DNA of 64,000 nucleotides from positions 1 through 64,000 of IMG/VR virus record IMGVR_UViG_3300005613_000030. The stretch is one strand, 5' to 3'. How positions within the stretch are numbered: the stretch's first letter is position 1; every line of letters begins with the position of its first letter. Under the pieces are notes generated by a model. The model was not told where the DNA came from and ran no database searches. It was given only the letters and a program-made list of their open reading frames with translations. A program made the position numbers and the translations under genes. This stretch comes from a virus. Shown here piece by piece: positions 44,641 to 51,575 of this stretch.

Positions 44641-45183
44641 ATGGCTAAAACTTGTGAAATTTGTTCAAGAGTCATATGTGAATTATCAAAACAAAAAAAG
44701 TATTGCTCTAAGCAATGCCGTGCTGTAAAAAAAATAATTACAGCTAAACAATGGAATTTACAGAATAGTGTAAAACATGCAGCACATCAGGAAAAATGGC
44801 GTAAGAATAATAGAGAATTAGATCGCATTAGATCTTTAGAAAGTAAAAAACGAGCTACAGTTAAGCAGAAATTAAAAACAAGAATAGCAACTAACCTGCG
44901 CAGTCGTATTCGTAAGGCTCTTCAAAAAGAGCAAAAAACAGGTTCAGCAGTGAGAGATTTAGGCTGTTCTATTGTGGATTTTAAGCAGCACTTAGAATCT
45001 AAATTTACAGAAGGTATGACATGGGATAACTACGGTAGAAATGGCTGGCACATAGATCACATCAAGCCATTAGCTAGTTTCGATCTTGAAGATCTTGAAA
45101 AGTTTAAGAAAGCTTGTCATTATAGTAACTTACAACCCCTTTGGGCTAAAGATAACTTAAAAAAGAGTGATAAATATGAGTAA
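44641..45183 (+). CDS. HNH endonuclease (WHIDH/NLQPLW family)
   Basis: Conserved C-terminal module; overlaps the protease start. Confidence 0.85.
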   Translation: MAKTCEICSRVICELSKQKKYCSKQCRAVKKIITAKQWNLQNSVKHAAHQEKWRKNNRELDRIRSLESKKRATVKQKLKTRIATNLRSRIRKALQKEQKTGSAVRDLGCSIVDFKQHLESKFTEGMTWDNYGRNGWHIDHIKPLASFDLEDLEKFKKACHYSNLQPLWAKDNLKKSDKYE

Positions 45184-46603
45184 AAATAAATCATTAGAAG
45201 TCGATATGTGTGCTGGATCTGAGTTATGCGACTCGCAAGGTGAAACACTTTCAATTGAGGGTGCCGACATTAGTGAGTTAGAAGCTGGACGTGGAAGATT
45301 AAATGATAATCACGGGAAATCATATATGTCTAGCATTGGCCGCGTAACTGGTGCTAAAAAAATATTTAAAGCTGAAGACTGCGAAGATGAACGTCAACTG
45401 TATTATTGGGATAAAATAAAAGCTCCATATTTATATGTTAAAGGTGTTTTATATAACGATGAAGATCACTCTAATGCAAAAGCGGCTGCAGCAATTTTAA
45501 GAAATATCCATAAATCTGATTGTCCATTAAGGATTAAAGCCTCGGTAGAAGGTGGCGTAATAAGTCGTGGTGTTAAAGATCCCAACAGATTAGAAAGAAC
45601 TAAAGTTCACTCTATAGCGCTGACGTTCACGCCTGCGAATCAAGCCACGTTAGTAGAACCACTTAACTTATCAAAATCATTAGATCCTAATCAGAATAAA
45701 ATAGATGAAAATCTAATTAAATCAGTTATACATTTAGCTAAAAAAGACGAAGAAATACCATCTTTTAGACATGTACAACGAAATGCTCAAGCAGAAAAAA
45801 TAGTAGCTAATATAGATAAAATACAAAAATTAGCAAAAGCAACAGGTATTGAAGTACAATTTAAAACAACAGATCCAGGGTTATTAATAAAAAAAGCGAT
45901 TGAATCTAAGGTATTAAGTAATGTACAAAAAATTAATGCCTTAATGAAAGCAATACGGACTAAAAACAATACAGCATATGGAATACGTCAACCTAGTGCT
46001 GCTTCTAAAACACCTGTAACCCCACAAGCTGGGAAGACATATAATGCTGATAGAACATCTAAAGTAGTTAAGCCTGCTCAACCAGCTATAGCTAAAGATA
46101 CTTTTCATAATGACAAATCTAGTGGCCCACTAACCGAAAATACTCCTGCAGGTGGAACTGAAACTTCTATCCCGTTAAAGACTGGAAAACAGTTTGTACA
46201 GAGACAGCTGATACATAGTATTGCAAAAGGTATCCATGAAGGTACACATAATATTAATGACATACAAAAGCAATTAAATGATAAAGGAATTCATCCAGAT
46301 CGAGTTAGCAAAATAATAGCACATTTACATGATTATTCATCTAAGTTTCATAAATCAATAGACGAGATTGATGATCTAGATAAAGCACTAATGGCTGGCA
46401 CTGGTGGAGCTGGAGCTCCAACTGATTTAACGGGTGGTGGTGTTTTTCAATCTGAATCATTAGAGGGTGATGGACGTTTTAAATACATTACTTGTGATAA
46501 CTGCGGTAAAGAACAGATACATAGTAAACATCAAGTGAAATGCCGTGATTGTGGTAAAAATTTCAGTCTAAATAAGTTATTCAACACTATGGTACAAAAA
46601 TAA
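45176..46603 (+). CDS. Prohead (capsid maturation) protease with long C-terminal extension
   Basis: DSQGE; NDNH; LYVKG.LY; ASVEG; IALT..PAN..T; located before scaffold and MCP. Confidence 0.85.
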   Translation: MSKNKSLEVDMCAGSELCDSQGETLSIEGADISELEAGRGRLNDNHGKSYMSSIGRVTGAKKIFKAEDCEDERQLYYWDKIKAPYLYVKGVLYNDEDHSNAKAAAAILRNIHKSDCPLRIKASVEGGVISRGVKDPNRLERTKVHSIALTFTPANQATLVEPLNLSKSLDPNQNKIDENLIKSVIHLAKKDEEIPSFRHVQRNAQAEKIVANIDKIQKLAKATGIEVQFKTTDPGLLIKKAIESKVLSNVQKINALMKAIRTKNNTAYGIRQPSAASKTPVTPQAGKTYNADRTSKVVKPAQPAIAKDTFHNDKSSGPLTENTPAGGTETSIPLKTGKQFVQRQLIHSIAKGIHEGTHNINDIQKQLNDKGIHPDRVSKIIAHLHDYSSKFHKSIDEIDDLDKALMAGTGGAGAPTDLTGGGVFQSESLEGDGRFKYITCDNCGKEQIHSKHQVKCRDCGKNFSLNKLFNTMVQK

Positions 46604-46766
46604 AATCAATTATTTCATATATTTATAATCTATATAAATAAAAAAAAATCACATTAATTTTAACTAATCTTTAAGTCAACTTAAGGTTGGGTATAAGTAT
46701 GCTTAAGCAGCCACTTATGGTATTATGAAATCTTAAGTTAAACTGTAAGGTATTAATATTAACAAT

Positions 46767-46794
46767 GTTCTGTTTATTTCAAGGGTAACAGAAC
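46767..46794 (+). promoter_or_regulatory. 5' leader hairpin just upstream of the SD of 46811
   Basis: GTTCTGTT-N12-AACAGAAC. Confidence 0.45.
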
Positions 46795-46810
46795 GATAAA
46801 GGAGATTAAA

Positions 46811-47185
46811 ATGGGTAACAAAGTAGCAATCCTAGACAAACTCAAAAGAAACCTTGACATGAGATCTATTTCTTATGTTGACAGTGGTTCTTTTATTGTT
46901 GTTGATACAGATTGGACTATCTCTTATGAAGACGCTAGCATTCAAAAGCCTATGGGTGGAATAGATGATAGTTCTTCTCCATTTCTAGGGATTGGCATTG
47001 GTAATCCTGGAAAGATTAAGATAGTTGATTCAGCTAATTTACTAAATGTTATGATAGATAGTGAAGTAAAGCAAATTGTATTTGCTTTTGTTTGTAGTTT
47101 CGCTAATGATAAACTGTTAGTTGATAGTGGCGCCAATGAACGTGTTGTTCCTGGACATTCAGATTTTAATGGTTTAGGACAATAA
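46811..47185 (+). CDS. Hypothetical protein in the head operon
   Basis: AAGGAG SD. Confidence 0.7.
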   Translation: MGNKVAILDKLKRNLDMRSISYVDSGSFIVVDTDWTISYEDASIQKPMGGIDDSSSPFLGIGIGNPGKIKIVDSANLLNVMIDSEVKQIVFAFVCSFANDKLLVDSGANERVVPGHSDFNGLGQ

Positions 47186-47209
47186 TTTACTCTATCTAAG
47201 GAGACTGAG

Positions 47210-47929
47210 ATGAAAAACGAAGAATTAACGAAATCTCTTGTTAGTCTCATCGATGAAACTCTAGAGGAACTAGAGGAACTGAAGAAGTCAAAATTTACTG
47301 CTGCAGAAATCAAAATTGAAGGACCAGGAGATAAAGATGTTGCTGGCAAACCTACCAATGGCGAATTAGATGCTAAAAAAGCAGAAGATGAAGATGAAGA
47401 AGACGATGAGAAAAAAGTAGAAAAAGGCGTTTTAGACGAAGCTGAAAAGTCTGAAAAAGACGAAAAAGACGAAGAAGACGAAGATAAGAAAAAAGATAAG
47501 AAAATTGCTCAAAAAGAAATTGATAAGCATAATGAAAAAAAGCATGGCGAAAAAGAAGATGAAGATTCTGCTTATAAGTCAATGCCAGAAGAAGATAGCT
47601 TAAAGAAATCTCTAGAAGAACAAGAAGAACTTATTAAATCTTATGTTGATTCTAAATTTGCTTCTTTTGAAGAAAAAATTGCGGGCTTGATTAAAAAGAT
47701 CGATGAGATCGGTGATGCTCCTGTTGAAAGAAAAGGCGTTTCTGCTGAAAACTTTAGTGCTCTTAAGAAATCTGAAGAAGAAGTAGCACCTCTTTCTAAG
47801 GCGCAAGTAGCTGATAAGCTTTTTGAACTTAAAAAATCAGGAAATATTGTAGACACAGAAGATATTATCAGGGTTGAAACTGGCTCAAATGCAGACTTGA
47901 TGTCAATCGCTGAAAAATATAAATTATAG
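47210..47929 (+). CDS. Capsid scaffold/core protein
   Basis: E/K-rich coiled coil with repeated xxK-S/A motifs, immediately before the MCP. Confidence 0.7.
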   Translation: MKNEELTKSLVSLIDETLEELEELKKSKFTAAEIKIEGPGDKDVAGKPTNGELDAKKAEDEDEEDDEKKVEKGVLDEAEKSEKDEKDEEDEDKKKDKKIAQKEIDKHNEKKHGEKEDEDSAYKSMPEEDSLKKSLEEQEELIKSYVDSKFASFEEKIAGLIKKIDEIGDAPVERKGVSAENFSALKKSEEEVAPLSKAQVADKLFELKKSGNIVDTEDIIRVETGSNADLMSIAEKYKL

Positions 47930-47952
47930 TAAACTCTTAAGGAGAGAATAAG

Positions 47953-49407
47953 ATGAACAACGACATGGTTAATCAAATTTCAAATGGATTGAGTCAGGGT
48001 CTAGTGTCTCCAGAGGACGTTGAACGACTTAATAAGGCGATCACAGCAGGTTACGGCGGAGCCGGAAAACCTACGGATCTTACTTACGGCGGCGTACTTC
48101 AGGCAGAATCACTTGAATCAACTCTAAAATCAATTACTTTCGACATGAAAAATCTTAAGTTTTGGCCTGCTGTTGCAGTAGACAAAGCTTATAACTTGTT
48201 CGAGCAGTACAACAGACTAGTTGGATACGGATCCGATTCTAGTCCTTACATGGGCGAAGGCGGAGCTCCTCAAGAAGAGGATTCTACTTACATTCGTGAT
48301 GGACAGAGAATTGTATTCTTTGGAACACGAAGAAAAGTATCCCATCAAATGACTTTAGTTAGAACTACAGTAGGTGATGTTGTAGCTCAACAAGCTAAAG
48401 AAGGAACAATGCATCTCCTAAAGAACATCGAAAGAGAACTTTATTGGGGACATGCTCATTTCGCTAATGTTGCTACTGGTGCTCAGAATGGATCAGTTTC
48501 CGATCTTCCTGCTAATTCAATTGCTATGAATGGTCTTCTTCAACAACTGTTGAAAGGCGACGATGATGAGCAACATAAATCAGGTGATTTCGCTGGTTTC
48601 GGAGATTTCCGATCAATAGCTCAAGATCTAGGCGGAAACGTTATGGCTCAAGATGATATTGAAGATCTATCAGTTATTGCTTTGGAAAACTTTGGTAATC
48701 CAAATGAATTACATGCTGAACCTCTAGCTATATCTGCTTTTATTAAGCAATTTTATCCACAATTCAGAAGCGCTCCAGGAATGTCAGCGCAGACAGTTGG
48801 ATATGATGTGAATAAAATGACCACATCAGCTGGTACTGTAGATTTTAAACCAAATCTATTTTTACGTCCACGTTATCAAGCTCGATCAAGAGCCGTCAAT
48901 GCTAATGCTCCTGTATTAGGTGCTGCTTCTTTCACAGCTGCTGCTGCTGGAACTGGTGGAAATATTCCTGCTGGAGATTATCAATATAAAATGACTTTTG
49001 TAAATGACTTTGGTGAGTCAGCTCCTATTCAGTTATCTGGTGGAGCAGTTACAGTTGCAGCTGGTGAAGTTGTTTCTTTAACTTTAGCAAATGTTCCTTC
49101 AAATGTTAAATCTATAAAAGTTTATAGAAGTAATGCTGGTGGAGCAGTTGGTGCAGAGTATTTTATTGCTAACTATAAATTAGCTGGTAGTGTTTATGTA
49201 GATTCTGGAGCTAAAGAGCCAGGACTAGGTGAAGCTTTCTTACTAGATATGAGTGCTGAATGTTTACGCTTTAAGCAACTTTCCCCACTTAGTAAGATAA
49301 ATTTCGCGATAGTATCTACTGCACTTGAGTTTGGTATTGTACTATACGGAGCTCTATTTGTTTATGCGCCGAGATTTAATTGCGTATTTAAGAATGTCGG
49401 TCGTTAA
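47953..49407 (+). CDS. Major capsid protein (Twort/Herelleviridae-like, with Ig-like insertion)
   Basis: KAITAGYG..GG.L..ESLE; EQYN; ELYWG; DYQYK.T.VND.GESAP; VYRS; LYGAL.VYAP. Confidence 0.9.
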   Translation: MNNDMVNQISNGLSQGLVSPEDVERLNKAITAGYGGAGKPTDLTYGGVLQAESLESTLKSITFDMKNLKFWPAVAVDKAYNLFEQYNRLVGYGSDSSPYMGEGGAPQEEDSTYIRDGQRIVFFGTRRKVSHQMTLVRTTVGDVVAQQAKEGTMHLLKNIERELYWGHAHFANVATGAQNGSVSDLPANSIAMNGLLQQLLKGDDDEQHKSGDFAGFGDFRSIAQDLGGNVMAQDDIEDLSVIALENFGNPNELHAEPLAISAFIKQFYPQFRSAPGMSAQTVGYDVNKMTTSAGTVDFKPNLFLRPRYQARSRAVNANAPVLGAASFTAAAAGTGGNIPAGDYQYKMTFVNDFGESAPIQLSGGAVTVAAGEVVSLTLANVPSNVKSIKVYRSNAGGAVGAEYFIANYKLAGSVYVDSGAKEPGLGEAFLLDMSAECLRFKQLSPLSKINFAIVSTALEFGIVLYGALFVYAPRFNCVFKNVGR

Positions 49408-49532: not shown

Positions 49533-50291
49533 ATGTTTAATCGTGAACGAACTAAAGAGCTTTTTGGATATGATTTAGATCTTTCAGTTACACGCCGTAC
49601 TAAAAAAGAAATTGAGCAATCAAATGGTGTTGTTAGAAAGCATCTAAAAGTTGTAGATAATTGTCCTATATGCAATATTGAAAGAATTATATTACTTCGG
49701 CAATCAAGAAAAAATAAACCATGTAGTAAATGTTTCCATAATCTACCAACGACAATAGCGGCAAAAAGAAATCAAACTAAATTTGTATCTGAAGAGACTA
49801 AGCAAAAAATGAGAGATAATCATTGGTCTAAAAATGGTGGAGTATCTGCATTTAAAGGTAAAAAACATACAGAAGACACTAAAAATAAATTGCGATTACA
49901 TAGACAGCGACAATGTTTAAATTACACAGACGAACAGTTAAAACAGTTTCATATTAAGGCATCTTGTACTGTTCGTAATATTTCAATAGAGGATTTTGAT
50001 GGCTTCTCTTCTCCTAAAAACACATTAATTAGACAATCAGCAGAAGGTAAGCAATGGCGAATAGATGTCATGGCTAAAGCAAATTTTACTTGCGATAACT
50101 GTAATGTACGCGGAAAGAGTTTAGTAGCTCACCATCTTGAGGCATTTCATTGTAATCCGGAATTACGTTTTGATATCAATAATGGTGTCTGCTTGTGTCG
50201 AGATTGTCATGCTGAATTTCATACACAATACGGAAAGCGAAATAATACTAAAATACAATATGAAGAGTTTCATTGTAAAAATAAAAGTTAA
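49533..50291 (+). CDS. HNH homing endonuclease with NUMOD3-type motifs
   Basis: SEETKQKM; GKKHTEDTK; CDNC..LVAHH..NGVCLCRDCH..H. Confidence 0.85.
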   Translation: MFNRERTKELFGYDLDLSVTRRTKKEIEQSNGVVRKHLKVVDNCPICNIERIILLRQSRKNKPCSKCFHNLPTTIAAKRNQTKFVSEETKQKMRDNHWSKNGGVSAFKGKKHTEDTKNKLRLHRQRQCLNYTDEQLKQFHIKASCTVRNISIEDFDGFSSPKNTLIRQSAEGKQWRIDVMAKANFTCDNCNVRGKSLVAHHLEAFHCNPELRFDINNGVCLCRDCHAEFHTQYGKRNNTKIQYEEFHCKNKS

Positions 50292-50363: not shown

Positions 50364-51575
50364 GTGATTATATATAAAATAACTAATCTAATTAATAACA
50401 AAATATATATAGGTCAAACAACACAGCCATTAAATTGTCGATGGAATGATCACTGTCATTCAAAAAGAAAAAATAACGCTATTACAAATGCTATTCGTAA
50501 ATATGGTAAAGATAATTTCTCAATAGAGGTGTTAGCAACAGTGTACAAAACTGACGATTTAAATAGATTAGAGAAATTTTATATAGAAGAGTTTAACTCT
50601 TTGGCACCTAAAGGTTACAATCTTAAAACTGGTGGTCAAGATCACAATCGATACACAGATGAAAGTAAAAAGAAAATGAGCAGTGCTAGAATTGGTACTA
50701 CTATGCCAATTGATGTACGTAAAAAAATAAGTAAAACACACAAACAAAGATTTAAAGATAATCCGTTATTATCACAGCAGAGAAGTGAAATGGTAAAAAA
50801 AGCATGGACAGATCCACAATACCGAATAAATAAGAGTATTAAGCAAAAAGAATATTGGTCTGATGACATTAATCGTAAACGGCATAGTGCAATAGGGAAA
50901 CAACTTGTTTCTGATCCTGAATACTTAAAAAAAGTTAGCAATGGTGTTAAGAAGGCACAACAACGCCCAGAGGTAAAACAACGCATGGAACAATTTTATA
51001 AAACTAAATGTAAAAAAGTTATCAATGATTTACAAGAAATATTTGATTCAATTAAGGATGCTGCAGAGGCATATGGTATTCAATCATCTTCAATCACAAA
51101 ACAAATTCAAGGTGAATACAAAACAGCTGGTAAAAGAACTTGGAAATACTTAGATGACCGTCAAACAGTGTACATGTTAATTGGAGCTCCAGCATCAGGT
51201 AAGTCATGGGTAGCAAATCAATTATTAGATCAATACGATTACGTATCGTATGATAAAAATCGTAAAAAAGACCATTTACAATTATTAGCTAATCCTTCTG
51301 ATAAAGATAAGTTATACGATCCGACATTTAAAATTAGTACAATGATCAGACGACATTCAGATGAATTTAATTTTATTATAGTATGTATTCACGAATCGGA
51401 AGATGTATTACGAGATCGTATAGCAAGTCGAAATGGTCAATGGACCGACACAATATTAAAGCGAAATGAGCAAGTTCGTAAACGATATGAGAAATATGGA
51501 AATGGTGGGATTATTGGCACGTCTAATGAAGTATTAGAATATTTAAAATCGTTAAATAGAGTAAAAGATGAATAA
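50364..51575 (+). CDS. GIY-YIG endonuclease fused to a C-terminal P-loop kinase-like domain
   Basis: IIYKITN..IYIGQT; PKGYN; C-terminal VYMLIGAPASGKSW. Confidence 0.8.
   Translation: MIIYKITNLINNKIYIGQTTQPLNCRWNDHCHSKRKNNAITNAIRKYGKDNFSIEVLATVYKTDDLNRLEKFYIEEFNSLAPKGYNLKTGGQDHNRYTDESKKKMSSARIGTTMPIDVRKKISKTHKQRFKDNPLLSQQRSEMVKKAWTDPQYRINKSIKQKEYWSDDINRKRHSAIGKQLVSDPEYLKKVSNGVKKAQQRPEVKQRMEQFYKTKCKKVINDLQEIFDSIKDAAEAYGIQSSSITKQIQGEYKTAGKRTWKYLDDRQTVYMLIGAPASGKSWVANQLLDQYDYVSYDKNRKKDHLQLLANPSDKDKLYDPTFKISTMIRRHSDEFNFIIVCIHESEDVLRDRIASRNGQWTDTILKRNEQVRKRYEKYGNGGIIGTSNEVLEYLKSLNRVKDE

Follow-up and report, generated by a model that had tools for sequence, protein, structure and literature searches.

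The prohead protease of an uncultured phage carries, behind its catalytic domain, a copy of the start of the phage's own capsid protein. We analyzed a 64,000-nucleotide stretch of DNA (the window), positions 1 to 64,000 of IMG/VR virus record IMGVR_UViG_3300005613_000030, which encodes an S78-type prohead protease and a major capsid protein (MCP) on the same strand. The copied segment of the protease is a selectively maintained copy of the MCP maturation site and of the N-terminal arm that follows it. We put at about even the chance that it serves as a self-release site joined to a mimic of the MCP arm, a mimic that engages the arm's partner in the prohead and loads the protease together with any passengers fused to it.

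The protease tail matches the start of the capsid protein

The 30 residues encoded at 46376-46465 in the protease gene and the 30 encoded at 48028-48117 in the MCP gene are identical at 22 positions. By BLASTP the match extends over protease residues 397-444 and MCP residues 19-64 (27/48 identical, E 7e-11 for the pair), from about 10 residues upstream of a lysine to the first cysteine of a predicted zinc ribbon. The parts of the two proteins are as follows.

45167..46603, + strand: prohead protease gene, 478 amino acids from GTG 45167, assigned from the list of open reading frames (ORFs), phrog_1028, likeness to the Mx1 protease and 752 homologues
45167..45679, + strand: catalytic domain, HK97/S78-type serine protease, residues 1-171, with invariant His49 and Ser126
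45674..45679, + strand: K170-S171, predicted first self-cleavage site after the catalytic domain, with K170 invariant and S171 nearly so
45680..46354, + strand: linker, residues 172-396, delimited by the AlphaFold2 (AF2) model and by low conservation (0.30-0.64)
46355..46384, + strand: P-side of the predicted cut, residues 397-406, ending in LDK406, delimited by BLASTP, with K406 invariant
46385..46492, + strand: copy of the MCP arm, residues 407-442, delimited by BLASTP and conservation and predicted to be disordered on its own
46493..46600, + strand: C4 zinc ribbon and C-terminal helix, residues 443-478, with four invariant Cys and a predicted local distance difference test score (pLDDT) of ~90
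47953..49407, + strand: MCP, 484 amino acids, SPO1/Herelleviridae type (phrog_752, PDB 9vel)
47953..48036, + strand: MCP propeptide, residues 1-28, ending in LNK28, predicted to be removed and aligning with residues 1-23 of SPO1/phage K-type MCPs
48037..48144, + strand: N-terminal arm of the MCP, residues 29-64, the original of the copy, delimited by its conservation

At the nucleotide level the two copies, 1.6 kb apart, have 49-60% identity, and their 90-nucleotide cores agree at 54 of 90 positions. Among 46 aligned codons there are 23 identical residues, and the same codon is used for 5 of these, against 10.1 expected from codon usage. Since the codons are less alike than codon usage predicts, the likeness appears to be held at the protein level, and we reject recent gene conversion on the same count. 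An earlier note on this DNA, made from the letters alone, had described the 22/30 match and argued that it is maintained in the protein; the translation reproduces its letters exactly, and the nucleotide and codon counts agree with its argument.

Searched with a profile of the 50-position motif, the 86.6-kb contig gives matches to the protease and MCP ORFs only (E 1e-25 and 5e-24; the next match has E 2); this contig is incomplete, and a third carrier of the motif is not found in it. No part of the MCP is more conserved than the arm: conservation, taken here as the frequency of the commonest residue, is 0.96 over residues 29-64 and 0.80 over residues 65-484. The protease stretch behind the Lys has a value of 0.79; its flanks have 0.30-0.45 and the catalytic domain has 0.85.

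Organization of the protease

The protease matches the head maturation protease family phrog_1028 (E 8e-12). It is 40% identical to the prohead protease of Myxococcus phage Mx1 over residues 5-162, and by BLASTP it is 32% identical (E 1e-11) to the SPO1-type protease of an Exiguobacterium phage. In the latter alignment NDNH (with His49) pairs with NYDH and ASVEGG (with Ser126) with FSVEGK, which aligns the two with the catalytic His and Ser of that enzyme; both residues are invariant among 62 homologues. The protease of the window has no Pfam match, PF04586 included, and its SPO1 and Romulus relatives pass the PF04586 cut-off of 21 with 23.7 and 26.2 bits. A Foldseek search with the AF2 model returns herpesvirus proteases as all of its top matches, which are weak (E 0.01-0.1, target template modeling score 0.33-0.42).

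The AF2 model has a confident catalytic domain (residues 1-165), helices at 174-270, disorder at 273-337 and a helical domain at 340-399. The P-side of the predicted cut lies at the end of a helix (377-409), as it does in the MCP. Across the motif (400-434) the pLDDT is below 50, and the motif is neither placed nor packed on the catalytic domain. Within the arm copy, A410, G411, G414, G424, Q428 and E430 are invariant among the homologues.

Behind the arm copy stands CDNC-x12-CRDC, which the earlier note had read as a zinc ribbon. Its four cysteines (C443, C446, C459 and C462) are invariant in the same homologues and form two CxxC knuckles, and the model places strands at 440-442 and 449-451 with pLDDT ~90, so this reading stands, with metal binding as a prediction. 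The region has a weak likeness to Ribosomal_S27e (E 0.009), and the first strand of the ribbon, YITCD, aligns with SITFD of the MCP.

In the Herelleviridae the arm copy stands directly behind the catalytic domain, and in the clade of the window it stands ~235 residues further on. Comparison of the two layouts suggests that insertion of a region, part helical and part disordered, has moved the copy ~235 residues downstream. K170-S171 stands where the arm copy begins in SPO1-type proteases, and its context, EPLNLSK-SL, is comparable to EPLDK-SL of SPO1. Because a nearly invariant Lys-Ser pair is kept at this position, two self-cuts, at K170-S171 and at K406-A407, are likely.

Residue numbers are counted from GTG 45167, the start given by the ORF finder. 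An alternative start at ATG 45176 is favored by the database form P0003 (475 amino acids) and by the N-termini of homologues; with it, the residue numbers would drop by 3.

Distribution of the motif

Wherever a related IMG/VR locus covers the C-terminus of the protease (25 loci) or the MCP (20 loci), the motif is found there. The same protease/MCP pair occurs in SPO1, Exiguobacterium phage 132, Bacillus phage Hakuna (Bastille-like), Enterococcus phage EF24C, Staphylococcus phage Romulus, Lactobacillus phage LP65 and Myxococcus phage Mx1. The proteases of these phages have a common layout of a catalytic domain, a Lys-Ser/Ala pair, about 40 residues resembling the start of the MCP, and a tail. 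Through the motif alone, database searches with the Romulus and SPO1 proteases reach solved MCP chains, of phi812 (E 5e-7) and of SPO1 gp6.1 (E 2.4e-6) respectively; the SPO1 protease also matches the MCP family phrog_752 (E 4e-5). The pair is a feature of head modules of the Herelleviridae type in general, and of others besides, and is not peculiar to the window phage. The motif is ancient, as it is kept from phages of Firmicutes to a myxophage.

The motif evolves in concert with the capsid protein

Each protease copy is nearer to the MCP of its own clade than to the proteases of other clades. The copy in the window scores 116 against its own MCP and at most 71 against the copies in other proteases; the Mx1 copy scores 80 against its own MCP and at most 54 against the others. 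When eight proteases are paired with eight MCPs in every way, 15 of 40320 pairings reach the score of the true one, and these differ from it only by swaps inside close groups. At the column of MCP Q50, the arm copy and the MCP have Gln and Gln in the window and Mx1, Arg and Arg in SPO1, the Twort-like phages and LP65, and Met and Met in the IMG/VR record G001.

A search of 1.84 billion representative proteins with the motif profile gives 109 carriers, nearly all of them proteases, MCPs or fragments, and lineage variants such as GYGYAG.PG...VLM.ESL appear in both protease and MCP classes. Old paralogues that diverged freely would not co-vary in this way, and by this comparison both copies would have to fit one evolving partner. 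The decay of the motif in orthologous proteases that would have told against the proposal of the earlier note is not what we see: the motif is kept, and it co-varies with the MCP across clades.

Predicted cleavage sites

The likely cut in the MCP can be placed from its relatives. In PDB entries 9row, 9rox and 9roz, the phage K-type MCP chain is deposited from Ser24, right after Lys23, and this position aligns with the predicted site in the MCP of the window. In the virion proteome of Bc431v3, coverage of the MCP begins only at Ser34, after Lys33 (PMC3601020). Both observations agree with the statement of the earlier note that Twort-like capsids are matured at a Lys-Ser bond. We infer that the MCP propeptide of the window phage is removed at the corresponding Lys-Ser/Ala bond, and the protease would likewise be cut after Lys at LDK406-A407. 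A cut there would leave a piece of 72 residues, the size that had been predicted for it.

The scaffolding protein encoded between the two genes appears to be a further substrate.

47210..47929, + strand: scaffolding protein, 239 amino acids, acidic, assigned from its position and from a C-terminal ADKLF as in SPO1 gp3.3

It contains 8 Lys-Ser pairs against 3.2 expected (p 0.007), and these sites are conserved in the alignment of the clade. Lys-Ser is significantly enriched in the scaffolds of seven of nine lineages (8-13 sites each, p <=0.007), with the consensus hydrophobic-x-K-S. The scaffold sites are without the long motif, and therefore the enzyme appears to need the short site only. If the short site is sufficient, the ~35 conserved residues after the cut need another explanation.

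The C-terminal regions of the scaffolds of the window (47780-47929), of SPO1 (gp3.3, L027 4198-4932) and of Bacteroides phage DAC22 (L030 6210-6764) have an (I/V)ADKLF motif in common. These acidic proteins are otherwise unalignable, and the ADKLF end is a candidate capsid-binding end.

Copies away from the protease and their passengers

Record G001 encodes a 269-amino-acid protease (L038 1069-1878) followed by a separate 950-amino-acid protein (L038 1896-4748) that contains the arm copy, at K749, with a CxxC...CxxC zinc-ribbon-like element and a 190-residue end domain. Its MCP (L035 9983-11521), encoded about 20 kb from there in this record, has lineage-specific residues in common with the 950-amino-acid protein, among them Met where the clade of the window has Gln. 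The record was reached through the carrier P0323; for P0328, P0312 and P0325, the search for related loci gave no match. Two giant carriers of the motif, P0328 and P0332, are without a recognizable protease domain.

What follows the motif differs among carriers. P0257 has HEAT repeats behind it, and P0312 has a domain before its zinc ribbon with a weak likeness to ART-PolyVal (E 1.4e-4, below the Pfam cut-off). Mx1 and P0347 have ~1000 residues behind the motif, for which no Pfam or PHROG match is found in Mx1, and the Herelleviridae have a helical tail only. Several kinds of passenger follow the motif, the zinc ribbon being only one of them. We reject the ribbon as a general component of the module, since it is absent in the Herelleviridae and Mx1.

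A comparable copy is found in T4. The 54-residue protein gp61.1 (L040 4967-5131, minus strand) consists of a leader resembling a capsid-targeting sequence and a copy of about residues 66-93 of the capsid protein gp23 (L042 1330-2895). Residues 2-38 of gp61.1 match residues 57-93 of gp23 across the E65-A66 site, with 17 of 37 positions identical (pairwise E 1e-9, genome-wide E 1.4e-5).

Possible functions of the arm copy

We propose that the segment would act in two steps. The protease would cut at hydrophobic-x-K-A/S, as at the MCP and scaffold sites, and free its catalytic domain from the tail; here the cut would fall at K406-A407 and probably also at K170-S171. The ~35 residues after the cut, dispensable for cutting, would imitate the MCP arm, and the uncut protease would engage the same partner in the prohead as the MCP arm does; this partner may be the scaffold, the shell or an enzyme exosite. 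In this way a few copies of protease and passenger would enter the assembling head. In the proheads of T4, P22, T7, SPP1 and 80alpha, the scaffold is contacted by N-terminal regions of the MCP (PMC9546572).

A complex prediction for MCP residues 65-484, scaffold residues 125-239 and protease residues 397-478 gave no answer (score 0.00) and counts neither way. The AF2 model of the MCP is unusable for placing the arm (mean pLDDT 49.7), a low value that follows from a shallow alignment in which all rows are at least 69% identical.

Several observations weigh against loading through the arm copy. In DAC22 (MT074141.1) the MCP keeps the Lys-Ala site and the arm, the protease (282 amino acids) is without an arm copy, and no second copy is detectable in the 179-kb genome; the copy is thus dispensable and can be lost in at least one lineage. 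The protease chain is absent from the deposited SPO1 and phage K-type capsid structures, and these do not show a tail that stays in mature heads. An exception comes from Bc431v3 virions, in which one low-scoring peptide of the arm copy was detected (residues 175-197, ion score 23; PMC3601020). It is one of two protease peptides from these virions (emPAI, the exponentially modified protein abundance index, 0.11), the other being from the catalytic domain (PMC3601020); from these two peptides, the protease or pieces of it are apparently not fully cleared from heads. Cleavage at the motif of these proteases was neither observed here nor found reported in the literature searched. Lys-Ser is also a tryptic site, and the Bc431v3 coverage of the MCP is therefore consistent with a cut at this bond and no proof of it. 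The concerted evolution is equally expected if both segments merely fit the same enzyme.

This last point makes extended substrate recognition the main rival, because it explains the co-variation equally well. The copy would then provide efficient and timed self-release through an exosite or a local fold, and nothing would dock. In both proteins the Lys-Ala/Ser bond comes at the end of a helix, and each copy extends to the same side of it; like a substrate, the motif is disordered by itself; the enzyme is the same for both, from which co-variation is expected; and SPN3US gp245 and T4 gp21 cut themselves. Such an account has to accommodate conserved Lys-Ser sites in scaffolds that are without the long motif, and copies in G001 and in T4 gp61.1 that sit off the protease. 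The conserved P'-side stretch of ~35 residues, ending in an MCP-like strand, also exceeds known protease subsites, and to our knowledge those of the herpesvirus, T4 and HK97 proteases are far shorter. We consider it unlikely that recognition is the whole function, though the idea is a serious one.

A structural role after maturation, as put forward in the earlier note, appears quite improbable. The released arm and zinc ribbon would fill empty arm sites near the portal or the vertices and may tie DNA to the shell through the ribbon. The arm does remain on the C-terminal piece after the cut, off the enzyme, an arm-copy peptide was detected in purified Bc431v3 virions, and passengers such as the HEAT repeats and the weakly matching ART-PolyVal domain look like packaged cargo. 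That peptide is low-scoring, however, and was accompanied by one from the catalytic domain, so the whole protease may contaminate the virions or persist in them; the piece is absent from the solved SPO1 and phage K-type capsids, and Herelleviridae tails are without the zinc ribbon.

We give still less credence to a pseudo-substrate brake or timer, in which the copy would fill the active site in cis or in trans until MCP arms out-compete it. All such phages have to keep proteolysis from starting too early, T4 gp21 is restrained, and the copy of the Herelleviridae is within a few residues of the catalytic domain. In the clade of the window, however, ~235 residues separate the copy from the domain, and G001 encodes the two in different proteins; in the AF2 model the copy has a pLDDT <50 and no packing against the domain, and a cut site is a poor lasting inhibitor. 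A relic of duplication or of recurrent gene conversion between neighbors, with no function of its own, would suit two genes 1.4 kb apart on the same strand, but it is close to refuted by the 5 identical codons where 10.1 are expected, by the island of conservation in a fast-evolving tail, and by retention of the motif from Firmicutes phages to a myxophage.

If the arm copy loads the protease, its use may be wider. We raise, as a tentative possibility that we hold with some doubt, that arm copies are a general and so far unrecognized signal for incorporation into the heads of tailed phages, which imitates a subunit's contact with scaffold or shell and has its passengers packaged. The carriers could include the tails of S78 proteases (in the Herelleviridae, Mx1 and the freshwater clade of the window), separate giant proteins (the G001 protein, P0328 and P0332) and small T4-type proteins such as gp61.1, and the signal could be a portable, MCP-matched loading tag.

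The head gene block and the phage

The + strand head-gene block of the window encodes an HNH nuclease, the protease, a 124-amino-acid ORF, the scaffold and the MCP. Two of these genes have not been listed above.

44641-45183, + strand: HNH nuclease gene, from the ORF list
46811..47185, + strand: gene for a 124-amino-acid protein between protease and scaffold, kept there in at least 20 related loci

The order protease, 124-amino-acid ORF, scaffold, MCP is kept across the clade. The order in SPO1 is the same, and the protease gene has the position between the portal and the scaffold and MCP genes that is typical of S78 proteases. The 124-amino-acid protein (46811-47185) matches no Pfam or PHROG family; its gene is conserved throughout the clade and is not at that position in SPO1-type phages. 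Genes of homing-endonuclease type flank the head genes (44641-45183, 49533-50291 and 50364-51575). The first, the HNH ORF, overlaps the start of the protease by 17 nucleotides, and a second HNH gene and a GIY-YIG gene are downstream of the MCP.

The MCP belongs to phrog_752 (E 4e-60) and is similar over its full length to SPO1 gp6.1 (PDB 9vel, E 4e-64), with a match also to the phi812 MCP (5lii, E 1e-7). Its identity to Herelleviridae MCPs is ~30%, and its Pfam SU10_MCP score of 22.3 is slightly below the cut-off of 24.1. The clade is large and environmental (freshwater), with 752 protease homologues and 26 related IMG/VR loci. We read the phage from these similarities as a distant uncultured relative of the Herelleviridae; the assignment to Twort-like phages in the earlier note is not upheld, given an MCP that is ~30% identical to that of SPO1.

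Significance

How a protease enters the shell in the right number and not too early is known for few model phages. Among the Herelleviridae are the principal phages used therapeutically for Staphylococcus, Listeria and Enterococcus, in which the protease-loading step is undescribed. A co-evolving copy of the arm is a concrete and testable answer to the question of loading, and it marks the first ~35 residues of the mature MCP as a strongly constrained contact surface. If the copy is a loading signal, it would provide a rule by which the packaged, and perhaps injected, proteins of uncultured phages could be recognized, and it could be made into a phage-matched tag for foreign proteins in capsids. 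We found no published description of the protease/MCP likeness in the literature searched; key papers (A511, phi812, Liu & Mushegian) were outside that search, so novelty is claimed weakly.

Comparison with known systems

Self-cleaved targeting tails and capsid-targeting signals are already known, and the new element here is a putative signal that imitates the arm of the capsid protein and evolves along with it. HK97 gp4 is also of the S78 family and reportedly (Duda and co-workers) needs a short C-terminal element for encapsidation, which is said to bind the scaffold-like delta domain of the capsid protein. The HK97 tail is not described as a capsid copy; HK97 is without a separate scaffold, and its cut removes 103 residues.

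The proteases of lambda (C/Nu3) and of herpesviruses (pUL26/pUL26.5) enter the procapsid carrying a copy of the scaffold, encoded by the same DNA in nested genes, and free themselves at a release site, such as the R site of the herpesvirus enzymes. The protease of the window is like them in carrying a copy of an assembly protein together with a release site of the maturation-site kind. It differs in that the copied part is the MCP arm, which is encoded separately with its own codons, and in that the scaffold has a separate gene. A nested protease-scaffold gene is thus rejected, as the two copies are separate DNA and the scaffold has a gene of its own.

The nearest analogue that we found in print is the protease gp245 of the giant Salmonella phage SPN3US, which has a self-cleaved C-terminal propeptide that was proposed to target it to the prohead (PMC7411985). 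In both enzymes a tail behind the catalytic domain is removed, or predicted to be removed, by the enzyme itself. However, gp245 is of the T4 gp21 type, cuts after Glu, and has a 64-residue tail that is not reported to be capsid-like, whereas the tail of the window protease is a co-evolving copy of the MCP arm on an S78-type enzyme predicted to cut after Lys.

In T4, IPI-III and Alt are directed to the core of the prohead by short peptides, which the head protease processes (PMC7411985). The T4 leader precedes the cut and is discarded, whereas the motif of the window follows the cut and would stay on the released piece. With ~35 conserved residues after the predicted cut, it does not belong to the capsid-targeting sequences of the T4 type, and would at most resemble them in acting as a loading signal. 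T4 gp61.1 indicates that arm copies also occur in T4-type phages, in which the enzyme family and the specificity differ from those of the window protease, and this parallel suggests that the principle reaches beyond one protease family.

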